Position numbers and translations under genes: made by a program. This document shows, one piece after another, positions 13,366 to 60,917 of a DNA stretch of 64,000 nucleotides (position 1 is the stretch's first letter; each line of letters begins with the position of its first letter). Source of the DNA: Escherichia coli (GTDB taxonomy: Bacteria; Pseudomonadota; Gammaproteobacteria; Enterobacterales; Enterobacteriaceae). The DNA is taken from the NCBI RefSeq assembly GCF_003334355.1, contig NZ_QOWP01000005.1. The stretch is one strand, 5' to 3'. The notes beneath the pieces were generated by a model. The model made no database searches, was not told the origin of the DNA, and saw nothing but the letters and a program-made list of their open reading frames with translations.

Positions 13366-13470
13366 ATGCCGGATGCGGCGTAAACGCCTTATCCGGCCTA
13401 CAAAATCGTGCTAATTCAATATATTGTAGAAACCTTGTAGGCCTGATAAGCGTAGCGCATCAGGCAGTTT
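13366..13470. repeat. REP/BIME cluster
   Basis: gccggatgcggcgtaaacgccttatccggcctac and inverted partner gtaggcctgataagcgtagcgcatcaggc. Confidence 0.8.
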
Positions 13471-13504
13471 TGCGTTTGTCATCAGTCTCCGATGCTATTA
13501 ATCC

Positions 13505-14416
13505 TTAAATCCCCGCCCCCTGGCTAAAGTGCTCTTCCCCAAACACCCCGGTGGAAAGGTAGCGATCGCCACGATCGCAGATGATCGCCACCACCACCGC
13601 ACCAGGGTTAGCTTTTGCCACCCGCAGTGCTCCGGCAACCGCGCCGCCGGAGCTGACGCCACAGAATATTCCTTCCCGCACCGCCAGTTCGCGCATGGTG
13701 TTTTCCGCATCGCGCTGATGAATATCCAGCACCTCATCCACCAGAGAAGCGTTGAAAATCCCCGGCAGATATTCCGCAGGCCAGCGGCGAATGCCGGGAA
13801 TGCTACTGCCCTCTTCCGGCTGCAGGCCAACAATGGTCACCGGTTTGGATTGTTCGCGCATAAAGCGTGAAACGCCGGTGATAGTGCCGGTTGTTCCCAT
13901 GCTGGAGACAAAATGGGTAATGCGCCCGCCAGTTTGCTGCCAGATTTCCGGCCCGGTAGTGGTGTAATGGGCGTAAGGGTTATCGGGATTATTGAACTGA
14001 TCGAGCAGCTTTCCTTCACCACGATTAGCCATCTCCAGCGCCAGATCGCGCGCACCTTCCATGCCCTGCTCTTTGGTGACAAGAATCAGTTCCGCACCAT
14101 AAGCACGCATCGCCGCACGGCGTTCCTGGCTCATGTTGTCGGGCATCAGCAATTTCATGCGATAGCCTTTAAGCGCGGCAATCATTGCCAGCGCAATGCC
14201 GGTGTTACCACTGGTGGCTTCGATTAACACATCACCCGGTTTAATTTCCCCGCGCTTTTCCGCCTCGACGATCATCGAAAGCGCCGCACGATCTTTTACC
14301 GAACCTGCCGGGTTATTGCCTTCCAGTTTTAACCACACTTCACTGCCGTTATTCGGCCCCATTCGCTGCAACTTCACCAGAGGCGTATTGCCTATTGTTT
14401 GTTCTAATGTACTCAC
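13505..14416 (-). CDS. cysM: Cysteine synthase B (O-acetylserine sulfhydrylase B)
   Basis: 303 aa from a GTG start at 14414-14416 (VSTLEQTIGNTPLVKLQR); the longer track ORF extends into the REP-containing spacer and is rejected. Confidence 0.92.
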   Translation of the reverse strand: MSTLEQTIGNTPLVKLQRMGPNNGSEVWLKLEGNNPAGSVKDRAALSMIVEAEKRGEIKPGDVLIEATSGNTGIALAMIAALKGYRMKLLMPDNMSQERRAAMRAYGAELILVTKEQGMEGARDLALEMANRGEGKLLDQFNNPDNPYAHYTTTGPEIWQQTGGRITHFVSSMGTTGTITGVSRFMREQSKPVTIVGLQPEEGSSIPGIRRWPAEYLPGIFNASLVDEVLDIHQRDAENTMRELAVREGIFCGVSSGGAVAGALRVAKANPGAVVVAIICDRGDRYLSTGVFGEEHFSQGAGI

Positions 14417-14440
14417 GATCTCTATCCATACGTGGTGTTG

Positions 14441-14476
14441 CCTGATGCGACGCTTGCGCGTCTTATCAGGCCTACA
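14441..14476. repeat. REP element in cysA-cysM intercistronic spacer
   Basis: gcctgatgcgacgcttgcgcgtcttatcaggcctac palindrome. Confidence 0.8.
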
Positions 14477-14549
14477 GGTTACAAACCTTGCCATTAAAAA
14501 GCCCGGATCGCGGGAAGCGCCTCCGGGCGTTTAACATTCACTCAACCTA

Positions 14550-15647
14550 TCAGGCGCTTTGTGCGAGAGCAAGTTCCTCATCGCGGGTTTCGATACGCTC
14601 GTCGCCGTTATACAGCCGCGCATGTTGCAGACCAACGAATAAACGCTCGCCACGCTGCGGGGCATCGTCGCCATGCATCACGACCGTCAGCGGTTCGTTG
14701 TACCACCCCAGCGGCTGCACCACTAATTGGGTGTAGTGACCTTTCGGGCTGGCTTCCAGTACCTGTACCGGCAGCGGCGAATCGAGGCTGGTACGGCGGC
14801 TGATATCCACTTCCCAAGGGCGCAGGAAGAGATCCACCGGCCCCTGATACGCAGGTGTGTAGCCCAGCGGCCAGCGATGCGCGCCAACATGGAACTGCCC
14901 GCCGCGAATGGTTCCCTGCAGGCGGTTCACTTCGCCCATAAATTCGAGCACAAAACGGGTCGCCGGTTCGCGCCATACCTGATCCGGCGCGTCAGCCTGT
15001 TCAATATTGCCCTGGCTCATCACAACTACACGATCAGCTACTTCGGTCGCTTCTTCCTGATCGTGGGTCACAAAAACGCTGGTGAATTTTAGTTCTTCAT
15101 GGAGTTGACGCAGCCAGCGACGCAGCTCTTTACGCACCTGCGCATCCAGCGCGCCAAACGGTTCATCAAGCAGCAGAATTTGCGGTTCCACAGCCAGCGC
15201 GCGCGCCAGCGCCACGCGCTGTTTCTGGCCGCCGGAAAGCTGCGCCGGATAACGATCCGCCAGATGGGCAAGCTGGACCATTTCCAGCAATTTTGTCACT
15301 TTCGCTTTGATGGCTGCGGCATTCGGGCGCTCGCGACGCGGCAGCACCGTCAGGCCAAAAGCGATATTGTCGAACACCGTCATATGGCGGAACAGCGCGT
15401 AATGCTGGAACACGAAACCGACTTTACGATCACGTGCGTGCAGGCGGCTCACGTCGGTGCCGTGGAAGCGAATATGCCCGCTGGTTTGATGCTCCAGCCC
15501 GGCGATAATGCGCAGCAGCGTGGTTTTCCCGGAACCGGACGGCCCCAGCAACGCGACCATCTGACCTGAAGGAATATCCAGTGAGATATCGTTCAGCACC
15601 TGGGTGCGACCAAACGACTTCTTAATATTGGCAATCTCAATGCTCAT
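14550..15647 (-). CDS. cysA: Sulfate/thiosulfate ABC transporter ATP-binding protein
   Basis: 365 aa; Walker [13 protein letters not shown] signature LSGGQKQR, Walker B LLLDEP. Confidence 0.97.
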
Positions 15648-16512
15648 GATGTTCCTCCTGCTGTGCGCGTTTTTCCTGATTCTCCAGGCGCCACTGCAAC
15701 ATACTTTTTAAAAACAGGGTGATAATCGCCATCAGCGTTAACAGCGCCGCAGCGGTAAAGGAGCCGACGGTGTTGTAGTCCTGCTCCAGCAATTCAATCT
15801 GTAACGGCAGCGACAGGGTTTCGCCGCGAATCGAGCCGGAAACCACCGACACTGCGCCAAACTCGCCAATCGCGCGGGCGTTGGTCAGCACCACGCCATA
15901 AAGCAGCGCCCAGCGAATGTTCGGCAATGTGACGCGGCGAAACATCTGCCAGCCAGACGCGCCAAGCAAAATTGCCGCTTCGTCTTCCTGGCTGCCCTGG
16001 CTTAACATCACCGGCACCAGCTCGCGCACCACAAACGGACACGTCACGAAGATCGTGACCAGCACCATTCCGGGCCAAGAGAACATAATTTGCAGATTAT
16101 GTTCATCCAGCCAGCCGCCGAGCGGGCCGTTGGAGCCGTAGAACAGCAGATACACCAGACCGGCAACCACTGGCGATACGGCAAAAGGAATGTCCAGTAG
16201 CGTCAGCAGTAACTGGCGTCCGGGGAAGTTAAAGCGCGTCACCAGCCAGGCCAGCAGAATGCCGAACACCAGGTTCACCGGTACGGCAATCAGCGCAATC
16301 ATCACCGTCAGCCAAATCGCGTGCAACATGTCCGGATCGGCCAGATTCTGTAAAACCGGCATCAGCCCCTTGCTGAATGCCTGCACGAAGATGTAAATCA
16401 TCGGCACCAGCAGGATGAACGCCGAAACCAGCATCCCGATGCCAATTAGAAACCATTTGCCCCAGTTAATCGGGCGCGCGTCATAACGCTTCAATTGTGT
16501 CACTTCCGCCAT
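15637..16512 (-). CDS. cysW: Sulfate/thiosulfate ABC transporter permease
   Basis: 291 aa polytopic permease; overlaps cysA start by 11 nt. Confidence 0.95.
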
Positions 16513-59106: not shown

Positions 59107-59463
59107 ATGGTTACACTTTACGGCATCAAAAATTGTGACACCATTAAAAAGACTCGCCGTTGGCTGGAAGCCAATAACATCGACTATCGTTTTCATGATT
59201 ACCGCGTCGATGGGCTGGACAGCGAATTATTGAACGGTTTTATCAACGAATTAGGCTGGGAAGCGTTACTGAACACCCGTGGTACAACCTGGCGTAAACT
59301 GGACGAAACCACCCGCAATAAAATCACCGATGCGGCCTCTGCGGCGGCATTAATGACTGAAATGCCTGCAATTATCAAACGTCCATTGCTCTGCGCGCCT
59401 GGTAAGCCTATGCTGCTGGGTTTCAGTGATTCCAGTTATCAGCAATTTTTCCATGAGGTGTAG
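59107..59463 (+). CDS. yffB: ArsC/Spx-family thioredoxin-fold protein
   Basis: 118 aa; N-terminal Cys motif [16 protein letters not shown]. Confidence 0.9.
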
Positions 59464-59466
59464 TCT

Positions 59467-60594
59467 ATGTCGTGCCCGGTTATTGAGCTGACACAACAGC
59501 TTATTCGCCGCCCTTCCCTGAGTCCTGATGACGCAGGATGCCAGGCTTTGTTGATTGAACGTTTGCAGGCGATCGGTTTTACCGTTGAACGCATGGATTT
59601 TGCCGATACGCAGAATTTTTGGGCATGGCGTGGGCAAGGTGAAACGTTAGCCTTTGCCGGGCATACCGACGTGGTGCCGCCTGGCGACGCCGATCGTTGG
59701 ATCAATCCGCCGTTTGAACCGACCATTCGTGACGGCATGTTATTCGGGCGCGGCGCGGCAGATATGAAAGGCTCGCTGGCGGCGATGGTGGTAGCAGCAG
59801 AGCGTTTTGTCGCACAACATCCCAACCATACGGGGCGACTGGCATTTCTGATCACCTCTGATGAAGAAGCCAGTGCCCACAACGGTACGGTAAAAGTCGT
59901 CGAGGCGTTAATGGCACGTAATGAGCGTCTCGATTACTGCCTGGTCGGCGAACCGTCGAGTATCGAAGTGGTAGGTGATGTGGTGAAAAATGGTCGTCGC
60001 GGATCATTAACCTGCAACCTCACCATTCATGGCGTTCAGGGGCATGTTGCCTACCCGCATCTGGCTGACAATCCGGTACATCGCGCAGCACCTTTCCTTA
60101 ATGAATTAGTGGCTATTGAGTGGGATCAGGGCAATGAATTTTTCCCGGCGACCAGTATGCAGATTGCTAATATTCAGGCGGGAACGGGCAGTAACAACGT
60201 TATTCCGGGTGAACTGTTTGTGCAGTTTAACTTCCGCTTCAGCACCGAACTGACTGATGAGATGATCAAAGCACAGGTGCTTGCCCTGCTTGAAAAACAT
60301 CAACTGCGTTATACGGTGGACTGGTGGCTTTCCGGGCAGCCATTTTTGACCGCGCGCGGTAAACTGGTGGATGCGGTCGTTAACGCGGTTGAGCACTATA
60401 ATGAAATTAAACCGCAGCTACTGACCACAGGCGGAACGTCCGACGGGCGCTTTATTGCTCGCATGGGGGCGCAGGTGGTGGAACTCGGGCCGGTCAATGC
60501 CACTATTCATAAAATTAATGAATGTGTGAACGCTGCCGACCTGCAGCTACTTGCCCGTATGTATCAACGTATCATGGAACAGCTCGTCGCCTGA
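59467..60594 (+). CDS. dapE: Succinyl-diaminopimelate desuccinylase
   Basis: 375 aa M20 metallopeptidase fold. Confidence 0.95.
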
Positions 60595-60621
60595 TGAGTG
60601 GTTCTGCAAGAGGAAATAAGC

Positions 60622-60822
60622 ATGGACTGGCTGGCTAAATATTGGTGGATTCTGGTGATTGTCTTTTTGGTAGGCGTCCTGCTGAACGTGATTAAAGATC
60701 TCAAGCGCGTCGACCATAAGAAATTTCTCGCCAACAAGCCGGAGCTTCCCCCGCATCGTGATTTCAACGATAAGTGGGACGATGACGACGACTGGCCGAA
60801 AAAGGATCAACCGAAGAAGTAA
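60622..60822 (+). CDS. ypfN: Small membrane protein YpfN
   Basis: 66 aa from [21 protein letters not shown] (single TM), acidic C-terminus. Confidence 0.8.
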
Positions 60823-60837
60823 GCTGAGTGCTCAACC

Positions 60838-60917
60838 GTAGGCCGGATAAGGCGTTAACGCCGCATCCGGCAATGGTGAACGATGCCTGATGCGACGCTC
60901 ACGCGTCTTATCAGGCC
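60838..60917. repeat. REP/BIME pair
   Basis: gtaggccggataaggcgttaacgccgcatccggca and gcctgatgcgacgctcacgcgtcttatcaggcc. Confidence 0.8.

Follow-up and report, generated by a model that had tools for sequence, protein, structure and literature searches.

The REP palindromes in this 64-kb window (the whole stretch of DNA that was analysed) are almost certainly canonical E. coli REP elements arranged in known BIME types, and five of the six sites that hold them differ in length or presence between strains. The window is a piece of the E. coli chromosome with the order tRNA-Val/Lys … cysM/cysA … eut operon … tktB … ypfH. A profile scan found 12 complete REP units and some partial arms; none lies outside six sites, here called S1 to S6 along the window. 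A sequence-only reading had claimed REP palindromes at six coordinates, and the profile and consensus scans place all of them within 1-3 nt of those positions; consensus, Rfam, and profile matches also bear out its identification of REP/BIME elements. With types assigned following PMC3333891, S1 and S3 are BIME-1, S4 is BIME-2-like, S6 is a y+z2 pair, and S2 and S5 are single z2-type units. The features are listed below, each unit being oriented as 5'-TGCC...CCTAC-3' on the strand given.

12541-13499: presence/absence segment of 959 bp, comprising yfeS and the S1 REP pair, bounded by an 8-bp direct repeat, ATTAATCC
13367-13401, + strand: S1 y-type REP unit, 35 nt, TGCCGGATGCGGCG...CGCCTTATCCGGCCTAC (profile score 39.2 bits; exact foot match; hairpin in the fold)
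13402-13436: S1 long linker (L-type), 35 nt, with an IHF-like site, ATTCAATATATTG, at 13414-13426
13437-13466, - strand: S1 z1-type REP unit, 30 nt, TGCCTGATGCGCTACGCTTATCAGGCCTAC, tail-to-tail with the y unit, which is the BIME-1 architecture
14439-14475, + strand: S2 z2-type REP, standing alone between cysA and cysM (cysA>cysM spacer) and matching the full consensus exactly; it is transcribed after cysA, on the - strand
14497-14532, - strand: terminator-like hairpin and T-run directly after cysA, upstream of the S2 REP and not itself a REP (inverted repeat with 11-nt arms)
25784-25929: S3 strain-specific insertion of 146 bp that holds a complete BIME-1 and is missing from five comparator strains
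25808-25837, + strand: S3 z1-type REP unit (profile hit), having the same sequence as its S1 counterpart
25838-25871: S3 long linker, 34 nt, with the IHF-like site of the S1 linker at 25847-25859 on the - strand
25872-25906, - strand: S3 y-type REP unit (foot consensus and profile)
35999-36098: S4 first 100-bp module, made up of a y-variant at 35999-36033 (+), a 12-nt linker, a z2-variant at 36046-36083 (-), and a 15-nt linker
36099-36183: S4 second module, with a y-variant at 36099-36133 (+) and a z2-variant at 36146-36183 (-)
49493-49520, + strand: S5 REP 5' arm in two partial copies of 14 bp, TGCCTGATGGTGAT and TGCCGGATGCTGAT, the first overlapping the tktB stop codon
49521-49557, + strand: S5 complete z2-length REP unit with G for T, GCCGGATGCGACGC... 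(exact consensus match; 37.1 bits)
49559-49577, + strand: S5 REP 3' arm, duplicated in tandem as an exact 19-bp copy, GCGTCTTATCCGGCCTACA (repeat and profile scans)
60838-60872, - strand: S6 y-type REP unit, the top profile hit of the window (40.0 bits)
60884-60920, + strand: S6 z2-type REP unit with a degenerate foot, CCAGG instead of CCTAC, paired head-to-head with the y unit, from which an 11-nt linker separates it

In nhmmer searches the 12 full units gave E-values from 1e-6 to 2e-11, and the best non-REP match had an E-value of ~0.9. The 14-nt REP foot consensus matched the window 13 times against 0.41 expected, and the full z2 pattern three times against 0 expected. One foot match, at 49075 inside tktB, has two mismatches and is a chance match rather than a REP; since the scans otherwise returned only the 12 full units at six sites, the list of sites is complete for the window. 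All 12 units are imperfect palindromes of 30-38 nt with inverted-repeat arms, their GATG/TTAT columns are conserved in the alignment, and 11 carry the GTAG/CTAC foot, the exception being the z2 unit of S6. Very stable hairpins are predicted on the transcribed strands, the cluster folds being better than those of shuffled sequences by 12-22 kcal/mol (z of -3.4 to -6.8), and a 2x2 internal loop recurs in the predicted z2 hairpins of S2, S5, and S6 and in the y hairpins. At the published load of 355 clusters and 584 units per 4.64 Mb (PMC4550694; PMC3333891), 64 kb would be expected to hold ~4.9 clusters and 8 units, and the REP density of this window, with 6 clusters and 12 units, is ordinary.

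No result speaks against this identification. These elements match the E. coli REP, BIME-1, and BIME-2 sequences of Gilson, Bachellier, and Hofnung (summarised in Ton-Hoang et al. 2012, PMC3333891) in unit length, sequence, foot, stem mismatch, and extragenic 3' location, and they depart from them, in nothing essential, by the locus-specific variants of S4, the z2 unit of S6 that lacks a CTAC foot, and the half-palindrome duplications of S5. REP and BIME elements have been described since the 1980s-90s, as have their placement 3' of genes, the hairpins that they form, and their variation in copy number among strains, and a catalogue of them exists for K-12; the value of the present results lies in annotation and comparative work, with little for discovery.

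BIME-1 is defined as z1+y in single copy with a long L linker that carries an IHF site (PMC3333891), and S1 and S3 each consist of one 35-nt y unit and one 30-nt z1 unit, placed tail-to-tail without tandem repetition around a long linker with a putative IHF site. The two linkers (35 and 34 nt) are near-identical and share the predicted IHF-like site AATTCAATATATTG, which has 1 mismatch to WATCAANNNNTTR where ~0.03 such sites are expected per linker; a related linker is found in the yfeW/yfeX pair of K-12. The S1 pair folds with -43.4 kcal/mol (z -4.3) on the + strand and -43.3 kcal/mol (z -6.0) on the - strand, and the S3 cluster fold has a z of -3.4. Variation at S1 is that of the whole segment of yfeS and REP, not a change inside the REP: 1380 of 5426 E. 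coli genomes (~25%) carry the 959-bp segment over its full length, and it is missing from ATCC 25922 and O157, its junction being visible in the O157 alignment. The S3 insertion was found in 4 of 59 sampled genomes and in ~310 of 5464 records (~6%), and from this presence and absence among strains we infer that it is mobile. Its paralogues are dispersed and align over ~131 bp at about 91% identity. Two inverted REPs and a spacer that disperse as one unit are likewise a feature of the REPIN/RAYT system (Bertels & Rainey, PMC3116915; Nunvar et al., PMC2817692), but unlike that system no TnpA_REP/RAYT gene lies within the 64-kb window and the junctions of the S3 insertion show no clear target-site duplication.

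The array between eutG and eutH (S4) has the alternating y and z2 units, short linkers (12 and 15 nt), and tandem number varying between strains of BIME-2, which is z2+y in tandem copies (PMC3333891). Its units are locus-specific sequence variants (GGCGGATG...CCGCCCTAC and ...CCAGCCTAC) repeated with a 100-bp period in 1.9 copies at 97% identity (TRF). The second module and the eutG stop codon (36185-36187, - strand) are 1 nt apart, and the fold of 35995-36135, which covers units a-c, reaches -75.6 kcal/mol (z -5.3). Across strains S4 consists of 1-5 modules (up to 10 units), a decayed remnant, or a BoxC replacement, the last in some strains such as AR_0137.

At S5, a 14-bp unit is repeated 2.7 times and an exact 19-bp unit twice. 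Strain 24A16CRGN010 has a third copy of the 5' arm, and the 19-bp duplicate is missing (-18/-19 bp) in ~15 of 59 sampled genomes. Among strains there are 1-3 copies of each arm, and the site has at least five length classes. In ~8 of the 59, S5 is replaced by BoxC; ATCC 25922, CFSAN061771, and 042 carry BoxC at this site. S6 is a single head-to-head pair without a tandem array (fold z of -6.8 and -5.9) and is dimorphic, at 801 versus 772 bp, the alternative allele being 29 bp shorter. By published in vitro criteria its z2 unit, lacking the CTAC foot, would not be a TnpA_REP substrate. The sequence-only reading had noted local duplications at several of the sites; these are present at two of the six, S4 and S5, and a search for local direct duplications at S1, S2, S3, and S6 found none. 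BoxC/PIT/TMECO G+C-block triplex repeats (PMC4666352), which supply the alternative alleles in the S4 and S5 spacers, are reported hot spots of intergenic variability as well, but they are a separate repeat family without the REP palindrome and none occurs in the window.

The single REP at S2 behaves differently from the other five sites. The interval that contains it measures 811-812 bp in all 59 sampled E. coli genomes, and the element is fixed at unchanged length in 5423 of 5426; a solitary REP without tandem partners is stable here. E. albertii carries the same REP unit, and other genera have their own REP-type palindrome or hairpin at this position. Its predicted RNA hairpin (-23.1 kcal/mol, z -4.9) contains a 2x2 internal mismatch. 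The hairpin and T-run at 14497-14532 have homologs at the equivalent place in Citrobacter, Enterobacter, and other genera.

As the sequence-only reading had proposed, spacer lengths were compared across strains, for each site in a sample of about 59 genomes out of the 5,426 complete ones of E. coli. Its expectation of length variation holds at five of the six sites, and the identical lengths that it had named as evidence to the contrary are seen at S2 only. Its description of the region as otherwise conserved does not stand, as alignment with five strains shows gene-scale and other non-REP indels at the tRNA/xap end, zipA, cysP/ucpA, murR, yfeW, eutKLCB/CPZ-55, and eutT. REP sites cover 0.9% of the window yet supply ~40% of the indel loci in this comparison, and a good part of the small indels seen when the region is aligned is theirs. 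Length changes by four routes: whole units are gained or lost (S3, and the K-12 yfeW/yfeX pair, which is missing from the window); the 100-bp tandem module of S4 expands and contracts, presumably via unequal recombination or slippage; half-palindromes undergo small duplications (S5); and an allele is swapped for a structurally different one or for a BoxC repeat (S4, S5, and S6). Two of the sites can serve as strain markers, the array between eutG and eutH (1-5 modules) and the insertion between yfeZ and yfeY (~6% of genomes), and they are natural allelic series for REP effects on operon polarity as well.

Function at these six particular sites is something we infer from what has been published on the family. 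As RNA in 3' UTRs and operon spacers, REPs would block 3'->5' exonucleases and would partly terminate transcription, and the result would favor the upstream cistron, cysA over cysM at S2 and eutG over eutH at S4, while at the convergent pairs of S1, S5, and S6 both partners would benefit. As DNA, to judge from work on BIMEs, BIME-1 linkers would bind IHF and BIME-2 would bind gyrase; binding and cleavage of BIME-2 by DNA gyrase are known from the literature (Espeli & Boccard 1997; Yang & Ames 1988). The REPs themselves would be non-autonomous and would depend for their processing and dispersal on the REP-associated Y1 transposase, TnpA_REP/RAYT, the gene for which would lie in another part of the genome.

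A quite plausible view, if one we hold short of probable, is that these REPs are purely selfish or neutral REPIN-like passengers of RAYT without any local role, their 3' position marking where insertions are tolerated. The S3 insertion in only ~6% of genomes and the dispersed ~131-bp paralogues of its unit, the absence of the S1 pair with yfeS from ~75%, the range of S4 from a decayed remnant to 10 units or BoxC instead, the swap of S5 for BoxC in ~8 of 59 sampled genomes, and the lack of the K-12 yfeW/yfeX pair in the window all point this way. Most of these copies (S3, S1, and the replaced S4 and S5 alleles) appear dispensable, and neutral or selfish persistence fits this at least as well as local function does. 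Against it stand S2, fixed at the same length in 5423 of 5426 genomes and common to E. albertii, with a REP-type palindrome or hairpin kept at its position in other genera, and the stabilizer and terminator effects published for some REPs. It is compatible with the canonical REP/BIME explanation, the sole difference being whether the copies matter to host genes. The length invariance of S2, its sharing with E. albertii, and the palindrome or hairpin kept in other genera lead us to speculate that S2 is a domesticated, selected regulatory hairpin that sets the cysA:cysM expression ratio; that this is so, or else that the half-palindrome stutters of S5 were left in vivo by RAYT cleavage and strand transfer and not by replication slippage, we regard as unlikely; either, if true, would make a tractable natural experiment of a repeat that is otherwise ordinary.

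It is far more doubtful that S4 and S6 are genes for naRNA4-type nucleoid-associated noncoding RNAs that organize the chromosome with HU. Their y+z2 pairs match the covariance model for REP325/naRNA4 (Rfam RF02564; PMC4550694; bioRxiv 10.64898/2026.03.23.713779), with 92.7 bits at 60841-60917 (S6, + strand) and 71.8 bits at 36049-36130 (S4, - strand) against a gathering threshold of 59.5; naRNA4 was reported from REP325 (PMC4550694), and S4 resembles REP325 in being a tandem array inside an operon, immediately behind a stop codon. The model, however, is built on a head-to-head y+z2 pair, so that every BIME of this arrangement fits it; S6 gives a hit on the opposite (-) strand too (61.5 bits), and the copy number of S4 and the allele of S6 vary freely among strains. 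REP325 moreover has 12 units versus 4 at S4, and the nucleoid role of naRNA4 is itself disputed. That the six sites are independent local terminator or attenuator hairpins, alike without being a repeat family, would agree with their uniform location at 3' ends and their stable predicted folds, but is refuted by copy number and alignment: queries containing REP matched a median of at least 22-40 places per genome, and at least 40 in 1590-3874 records; the 12 units align over their full length, loop-proximal mismatch and foot included; and S1 and S3 share one and the same z1 sequence. No T-run follows any of the 12 units, the real hairpin and T-run after cysA being separate from the REP, and we consider this reading practically untenable.

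The gene map agrees with the placement given by the sequence-only reading, at 3' ends or in operon-internal spacers. Three sites lie between convergent 3' ends (S1 yfeS>|<cysM, S5 tktB>|<ypfG, and S6 ypfN>|<ypfH) and three in same-strand spacers (S2 cysA>cysM, S3 yfeZ>yfeY, and S4 eutG>eutH). When spacers of 30 bp or longer are counted, REPs are present in 3 of 6 convergent, 3 of 20 tandem, and none of 8 divergent ones, an absence that is not significant on the window alone, as the chance for six elements, estimated from spacer lengths, is ~9%. The remark that REPs generate spurious open reading frames is likewise correct, in that mechanical ORFs are seeded in or run through the clusters, and the 579 bp of REP sites account for several that are to be ignored in annotation. 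Examples that start in or cross the S4 cluster are 36034-36366 (+, 110 aa), 36134-36580 (+, 148 aa), and 35984-36184 (-, 66 aa), and the mechanical ORF of cysM (13505-14494) is overextended, at 329 aa versus a true length of 303 aa.

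The six REP/BIME sites of the window, S1 to S6, are elements of a type already described, and their density is ordinary: a genome has 355 clusters and 584 units (PMC4550694, PMC3333891), from which ~4.9 clusters and 8 units are expected per 64 kb. The sequence-only reading had described these sites and predicted that their lengths would differ between strains, and it was essentially right, with the caveats that S2 is invariant, that the variation at S1 is not driven by the REP, and that non-REP indels are present as well. The sites, each with the length of the spacer-plus-flanks query used for it, are:

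S1, 13367-13466, between the convergent 3' ends of yfeS and cysM; query 1661 bp
S2, 14439-14475, in the same-strand spacer from cysA to cysM; query 811 bp
S3, 25808-25906, in the same-strand spacer from yfeZ to yfeY; query 906 bp
S4, 35999-36183, in the same-strand spacer from eutG to eutH; query 917 bp
S5, 49493-49577, between the convergent 3' ends of tktB and ypfG; query 796 bp
S6, 60838-60920, between the convergent 3' ends of ypfN and ypfH; query 801 bp

A degenerate pattern of the full-length REP matched the window 3 times (0 expected), and a 14-nt foot pattern 13 times (0.41 expected), 12 of them inside S1-S6; the 13th, inside tktB, carries 2 mismatches and was rejected as a chance match. 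A profile built from the alignment of the 12 units, run without any filter over the whole window, scored those units at 24.8-40.0 bits (E 1e-6 to 2e-11) and a duplicated half-unit (49559-49576) at 15.3 bits, and beyond S1-S6 its next hit had E ~0.9, opposite-strand matches of counted units being excluded. By the profile and pattern scans, the original list of six sites is complete, and its coordinates are right to within 1-3 nt.

All six lie at 3' ends or in operon-internal spacers, as had been claimed, three between convergent genes and three between genes on the same strand. Among spacers of at least 30 bp in the gene map of the window, REPs occupy 3/6 convergent, 3/20 tandem and 0/8 divergent ones, a distribution in line with the bias for which the family is known but, on six elements alone, only weakly significant (roughly 9% by chance, estimated from spacer lengths). 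At S4, S5 and S6, units lie close to stop codons: the last S4 unit begins 2 nt beyond that of eutG, the S6 units lie 15 nt from that of ypfN and about 11-14 nt from that of ypfH, and the first partial 5'-arm copy of S5 (TGCCTGA) overlaps that of tktB. A REP no more than about 15 nt from a stop codon is reportedly predicted to stall ribosomes (Liang, Rudd & Deutscher 2015), which would make eutG a candidate for such an effect. The warning about spurious ORFs also held, and the mechanical ORF list has ORFs begun in, or extended through, REP clusters (36034-36366, 110 aa; 36134-36580, 148 aa; 35984-36184, 66 aa; and the cysM ORF, extended through the REP to 14494).

The copy of the K-12 MG1655 RefSeq record that was searched lists no curated REP features, and unit types were therefore assigned from the sequence and the published scheme of y, z1 and z2 units, in which BIME-1 is a single-copy z1+y pair with a long L linker, often with an IHF site, and BIME-2 has z2+y repeated in tandem across short linkers (PMC3333891). 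Three unit classes were distinguished:

35-nt class, TGCCGGATGCGGCG-NNAA-CGCCTTATCCGGCCTAC
30-nt class, TGCCTGATGCGCTACGCTTATCAGGCCTAC
37-38-nt class, TGCC(T/G)GATGCGACGC-NNNN-GCGTCTTATC(A/C)GGCCTAC

On this scheme S1 and S3 are BIME-1, with y and z1 units tail-to-tail across linkers of 35 nt and 34 nt, and these linkers share an IHF-like AATTCAATATATTG that departs from the IHF consensus WATCAANNNNTTR by one mismatch (~0.03 such matches expected per linker by chance). S4 is a BIME-2-like array whose y and z2 units are locus-specific variants and whose linkers measure 12 nt and 15 nt, S6 is one head-to-head y+z2 pair, and S2 and S5 are solitary z2-type units. The Rfam model naRNA4, itself built from a BIME, matched S6 (92.7 bits) and S4 (71.8 bits) above threshold, which marks both as y+z2 pairs and is no demonstration of sRNA genes. 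On the transcribed strands every cluster has a far more stable fold than its dinucleotide shuffles (z -3.4 to -6.8), and single units display the characteristic internal mismatch in the fold. Local duplications, which had been claimed for several sites, were found by Tandem Repeats Finder and a repeat finder at S4 (a 100-bp module x1.9 over 35999-36183, 97% identity) and S5 (a 14-bp unit x2.7 at 49493-49530, together with a 19-bp unit at 49540-49577 that is present twice without a mismatch), and none were found at S1, S2, S3 and S6.

Each query was searched against 5,426 complete E. coli genomes, and spacer spans were read in ~59 genomes per site, picked at even steps down the match ranking. 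S1, S3, S4, S5 and S6 vary in length in this sample, as predicted, and S2 alone does not. At S4 (n=59), ~25 genomes match the window, ~18 are exactly 100 bp shorter, 4 (O157) are 117 bp shorter, ~6 are longer by 100 or 200 bp, 3 have a different 169-bp spacer and 3 fall into no clear class. Fetched examples of eutH-eutG spacers of 99, 116, 169, 216, 316, 416 and 515 bp hold 0 (decayed), 2, 0 (replaced), 4, 6, 8 and 10 REP units, respectively. S6 measures 801 bp in 31/59, 800 bp in 1/59 and 772 bp in 27/59, the short allele having three indels (-11, -7, -10) and a shortened z unit.

S5 (n=59) has the window's length in ~20 genomes, +1 in 15, -18/-19 in 15, about +8 in 8 and +34 in 1; among its variants are forms that have lost the 19-bp duplicate, one in which each arm occurs three times, and forms in which a BoxC-type repeat stands in for the REP. 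Half-palindrome copies at 49493-49577 range from 1 to 3 per arm between strains. Replication slippage or strand transfer mediated by a RAYT, the REP-associated Y1 transposase (TnpA_REP), may have produced the arm copies. Published TnpA_REP cleavage sites are CC|T, and the 5'-arm copies start with a TGCC|TGAT-like sequence; the junction of the 19-bp duplication, ACA|GCG, does not agree with the C|T rule, so that a TnpA_REP origin of the S5 duplications is speculative.

The element that replaces the REP at S4 in AR_0137 (locus L009, 401-569) and at S5 in CFSAN061771, ATCC 25922 (loci L015 and L016) and strain 042 was identified, by comparison with Table 1 of PMC4666352, as a BoxC/PIT/'TMECO' type A triplex-motif repeat (reverse complement CCCCTCGCCCCTCTGGGGAGAGGGTTAGGGTGAGGGG); an Rfam search with the copies of AR_0137 and ATCC 25922 gave no match. 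Both spacers thus host either repeat family, and at S5 the REP 5'-arm stutter still adjoins the BoxC element like a footprint.

S1 is present at full length in 1380/5426 genomes; in the sample, 44/59 are shorter by 959 bp, one is longer by 16 bp and three have IS1 or IS5 insertions. The absent piece comprises yfeS and the REP pair (window 12541-13499) and is flanked by the 8-bp direct repeat ATTAATCC. A REP-mediated polymorphism is ruled out here by junctions that fall within this repeat, the right-hand one ~33 bp past the REP pair, and the REP is therefore a passenger in the event. Both the yfeS+BIME-1 arrangement and the short form are found outside the lineage of the window strain. Downstream of yfeS, at 13317-13366, a perfect terminator hairpin, TTTGTCGGCAGCAACAACTGCCGACAAA, which is intact in strain EC931, survives in the window as its 5' arm alone; a 16-bp deletion took the 3' arm, and the +16-bp variant has it restored.

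At S3 the window has the rare state, 906 bp in 4/59 against 760-761 bp in 55/59. The 146-bp insert alone was found at no less than 95% identity in ~310/5464 records, one of them an E. coli B derivative, and its best match elsewhere in these genomes is a paralogue of ~91% identity over 131 bp, so that the two REPs and their conserved flanks together form a dispersed element.

The S2 query is covered to at least 80% in one place in 5423/5426 genomes, and its span measures 811 bp in 47/59 and 812 bp in 12/59. Species-representative genomes beyond E. coli were scanned with CysM, which returned 80 loci. E. albertii has an E. coli-type z2 unit in the identical place and orientation, Pseudocitrobacter faecalis has a y+z2 pair, and in Citrobacter, Enterobacter, Pluralibacter and others the spot is taken by REP-type palindromes of their own (GCCGGGTGGCGC...CCCGGCCTAC) or by one hairpin with a T-run. 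A hairpin with a T-run also stands at 14497-14532 (minus strand), immediately 3' of cysA, and its position is kept across Escherichia, Citrobacter, Enterobacter and other genera, which suggests an internal terminator or attenuator ahead of cysM that is independent of the REP. The conserved feature after cysA is this hairpin; the z2 REP is an addition of the Escherichia lineage, fixed since. S2 is the best candidate for a maintained function among the six sites.

The identity, structure, position and polymorphism of the sites are direct observations, and what the sites might do is drawn from the family at large. BIME-2 arrays would bind gyrase, as has reportedly been described for the family. 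REP RNA hairpins would be expected to impede 3' exonucleases and partly terminate transcription, which would benefit upstream cistrons and, where two genes converge, both of them. BIME-1 linkers may bind IHF, and REP units may be substrates of TnpA_REP (PMC3333891). Against such a local role, it is at least as likely that most copies are neutral or selfish, because S1, S3 and many S4-S6 alleles are dispensable.

The sequence-only reading had further held the REPs to be the likeliest variable sites of an otherwise conserved region. We compared the whole window with 13P484A, K-12 (partial), 042, ATCC 25922 and O157 644-PT8, taking in all indels of 5 bp or more. The six clusters, whose 579 bp make up 0.9% of the window, account for ~40% of the distinct indel loci, a strong enrichment. 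REP-associated loci are S1, S3, S4, S5, S6 and the yfeW/yfeX spacer. The region is not "otherwise conserved", however: the biggest differences are on the scale of genes and have no connection with REPs. In the yfeW/yfeX spacer (window 24094-24150; K-12 locus L003, 28408-28646), K-12 and 13P484A have, between two copies of the bidirectional terminator hairpin GGCCAGTCAGTAATGTTACTGGCTGG, a BIME-1 (+182 bp), and the window has one hairpin but lacks the REP, so REP occupancy varies both ways from strain to strain. Non-REP loci are the tRNA/RtT/xap end, zipA (window 5695, in-frame +12 bp in 042, ATCC 25922 and O157), cysP/ucpA, murR (19497-20370, deleted in ATCC 25922), yfeW (22872-24055, deleted in 042 and ATCC 25922), the eutKLCB/CPZ-55 region and eutT (in-frame deletions of 6 bp in 042 and 72 bp in O157, at 41537-41542 and 41702-41773). 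At cysP/ucpA (window 18474) K-12 has a 146-bp insert (L003 about 22645-22790) that the window lacks; the insert has terminal inverted repeats AGAACTTGGTTCAAC ... GTGAACTTAGTTCAAGA and is MITE-like, not a REP. Strain 042 carries 13 additional bp at this position.

The window is a piece of Escherichia coli chromosome, and its genes run in this order:

First block: tRNA-Val/Lys, yfeR, yfeH, ligA, zipA, cysZ, cysK, ptsHI-crr, pdxK, yfeK, yfeS
Next block, convergent with yfeS: cysM-cysA-cysW-cysU-cysP, ucpA, murRQP, yfeW
Third block: yfeX, yfeY, yfeZ, ypeA, amiA, hemF, then the eut operon
Last block: maeB, talA, tktB, ypfG, nudK, aegA, narQ, acrD, yffB, dapE, ypfN, ypfH, tmcA

It differs from both K-12 and 13P484A, in part exactly at REP sites; 13P484A is 100% identical over 13000-15000 and departs at yfeW/yfeX, S3 and the eutR-eutA segment. 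The eut operon (28781-35968) is intact, with no CPZ-55 prophage between eutB and eutA, where K-12 has +6.8 kb; the eutK-eutB region of 13P484A has an integrase fragment, an HTH gene and IS5 instead. A FlxA-like gene (431-772; difference at window 365-762) stands in place of the ~4 kb xapR-xapB-xapA-yfeN of K-12 and ATCC 25922. Just 3' of tRNA-Lys, an RtT-like element (186-311; scored by Rfam RF00391 at 46.7 bits, threshold 45) corresponds to one that PGAP labels RtT sRNA in 13P484A, and ~156 bp at this element are missing in strains 042 and O157.
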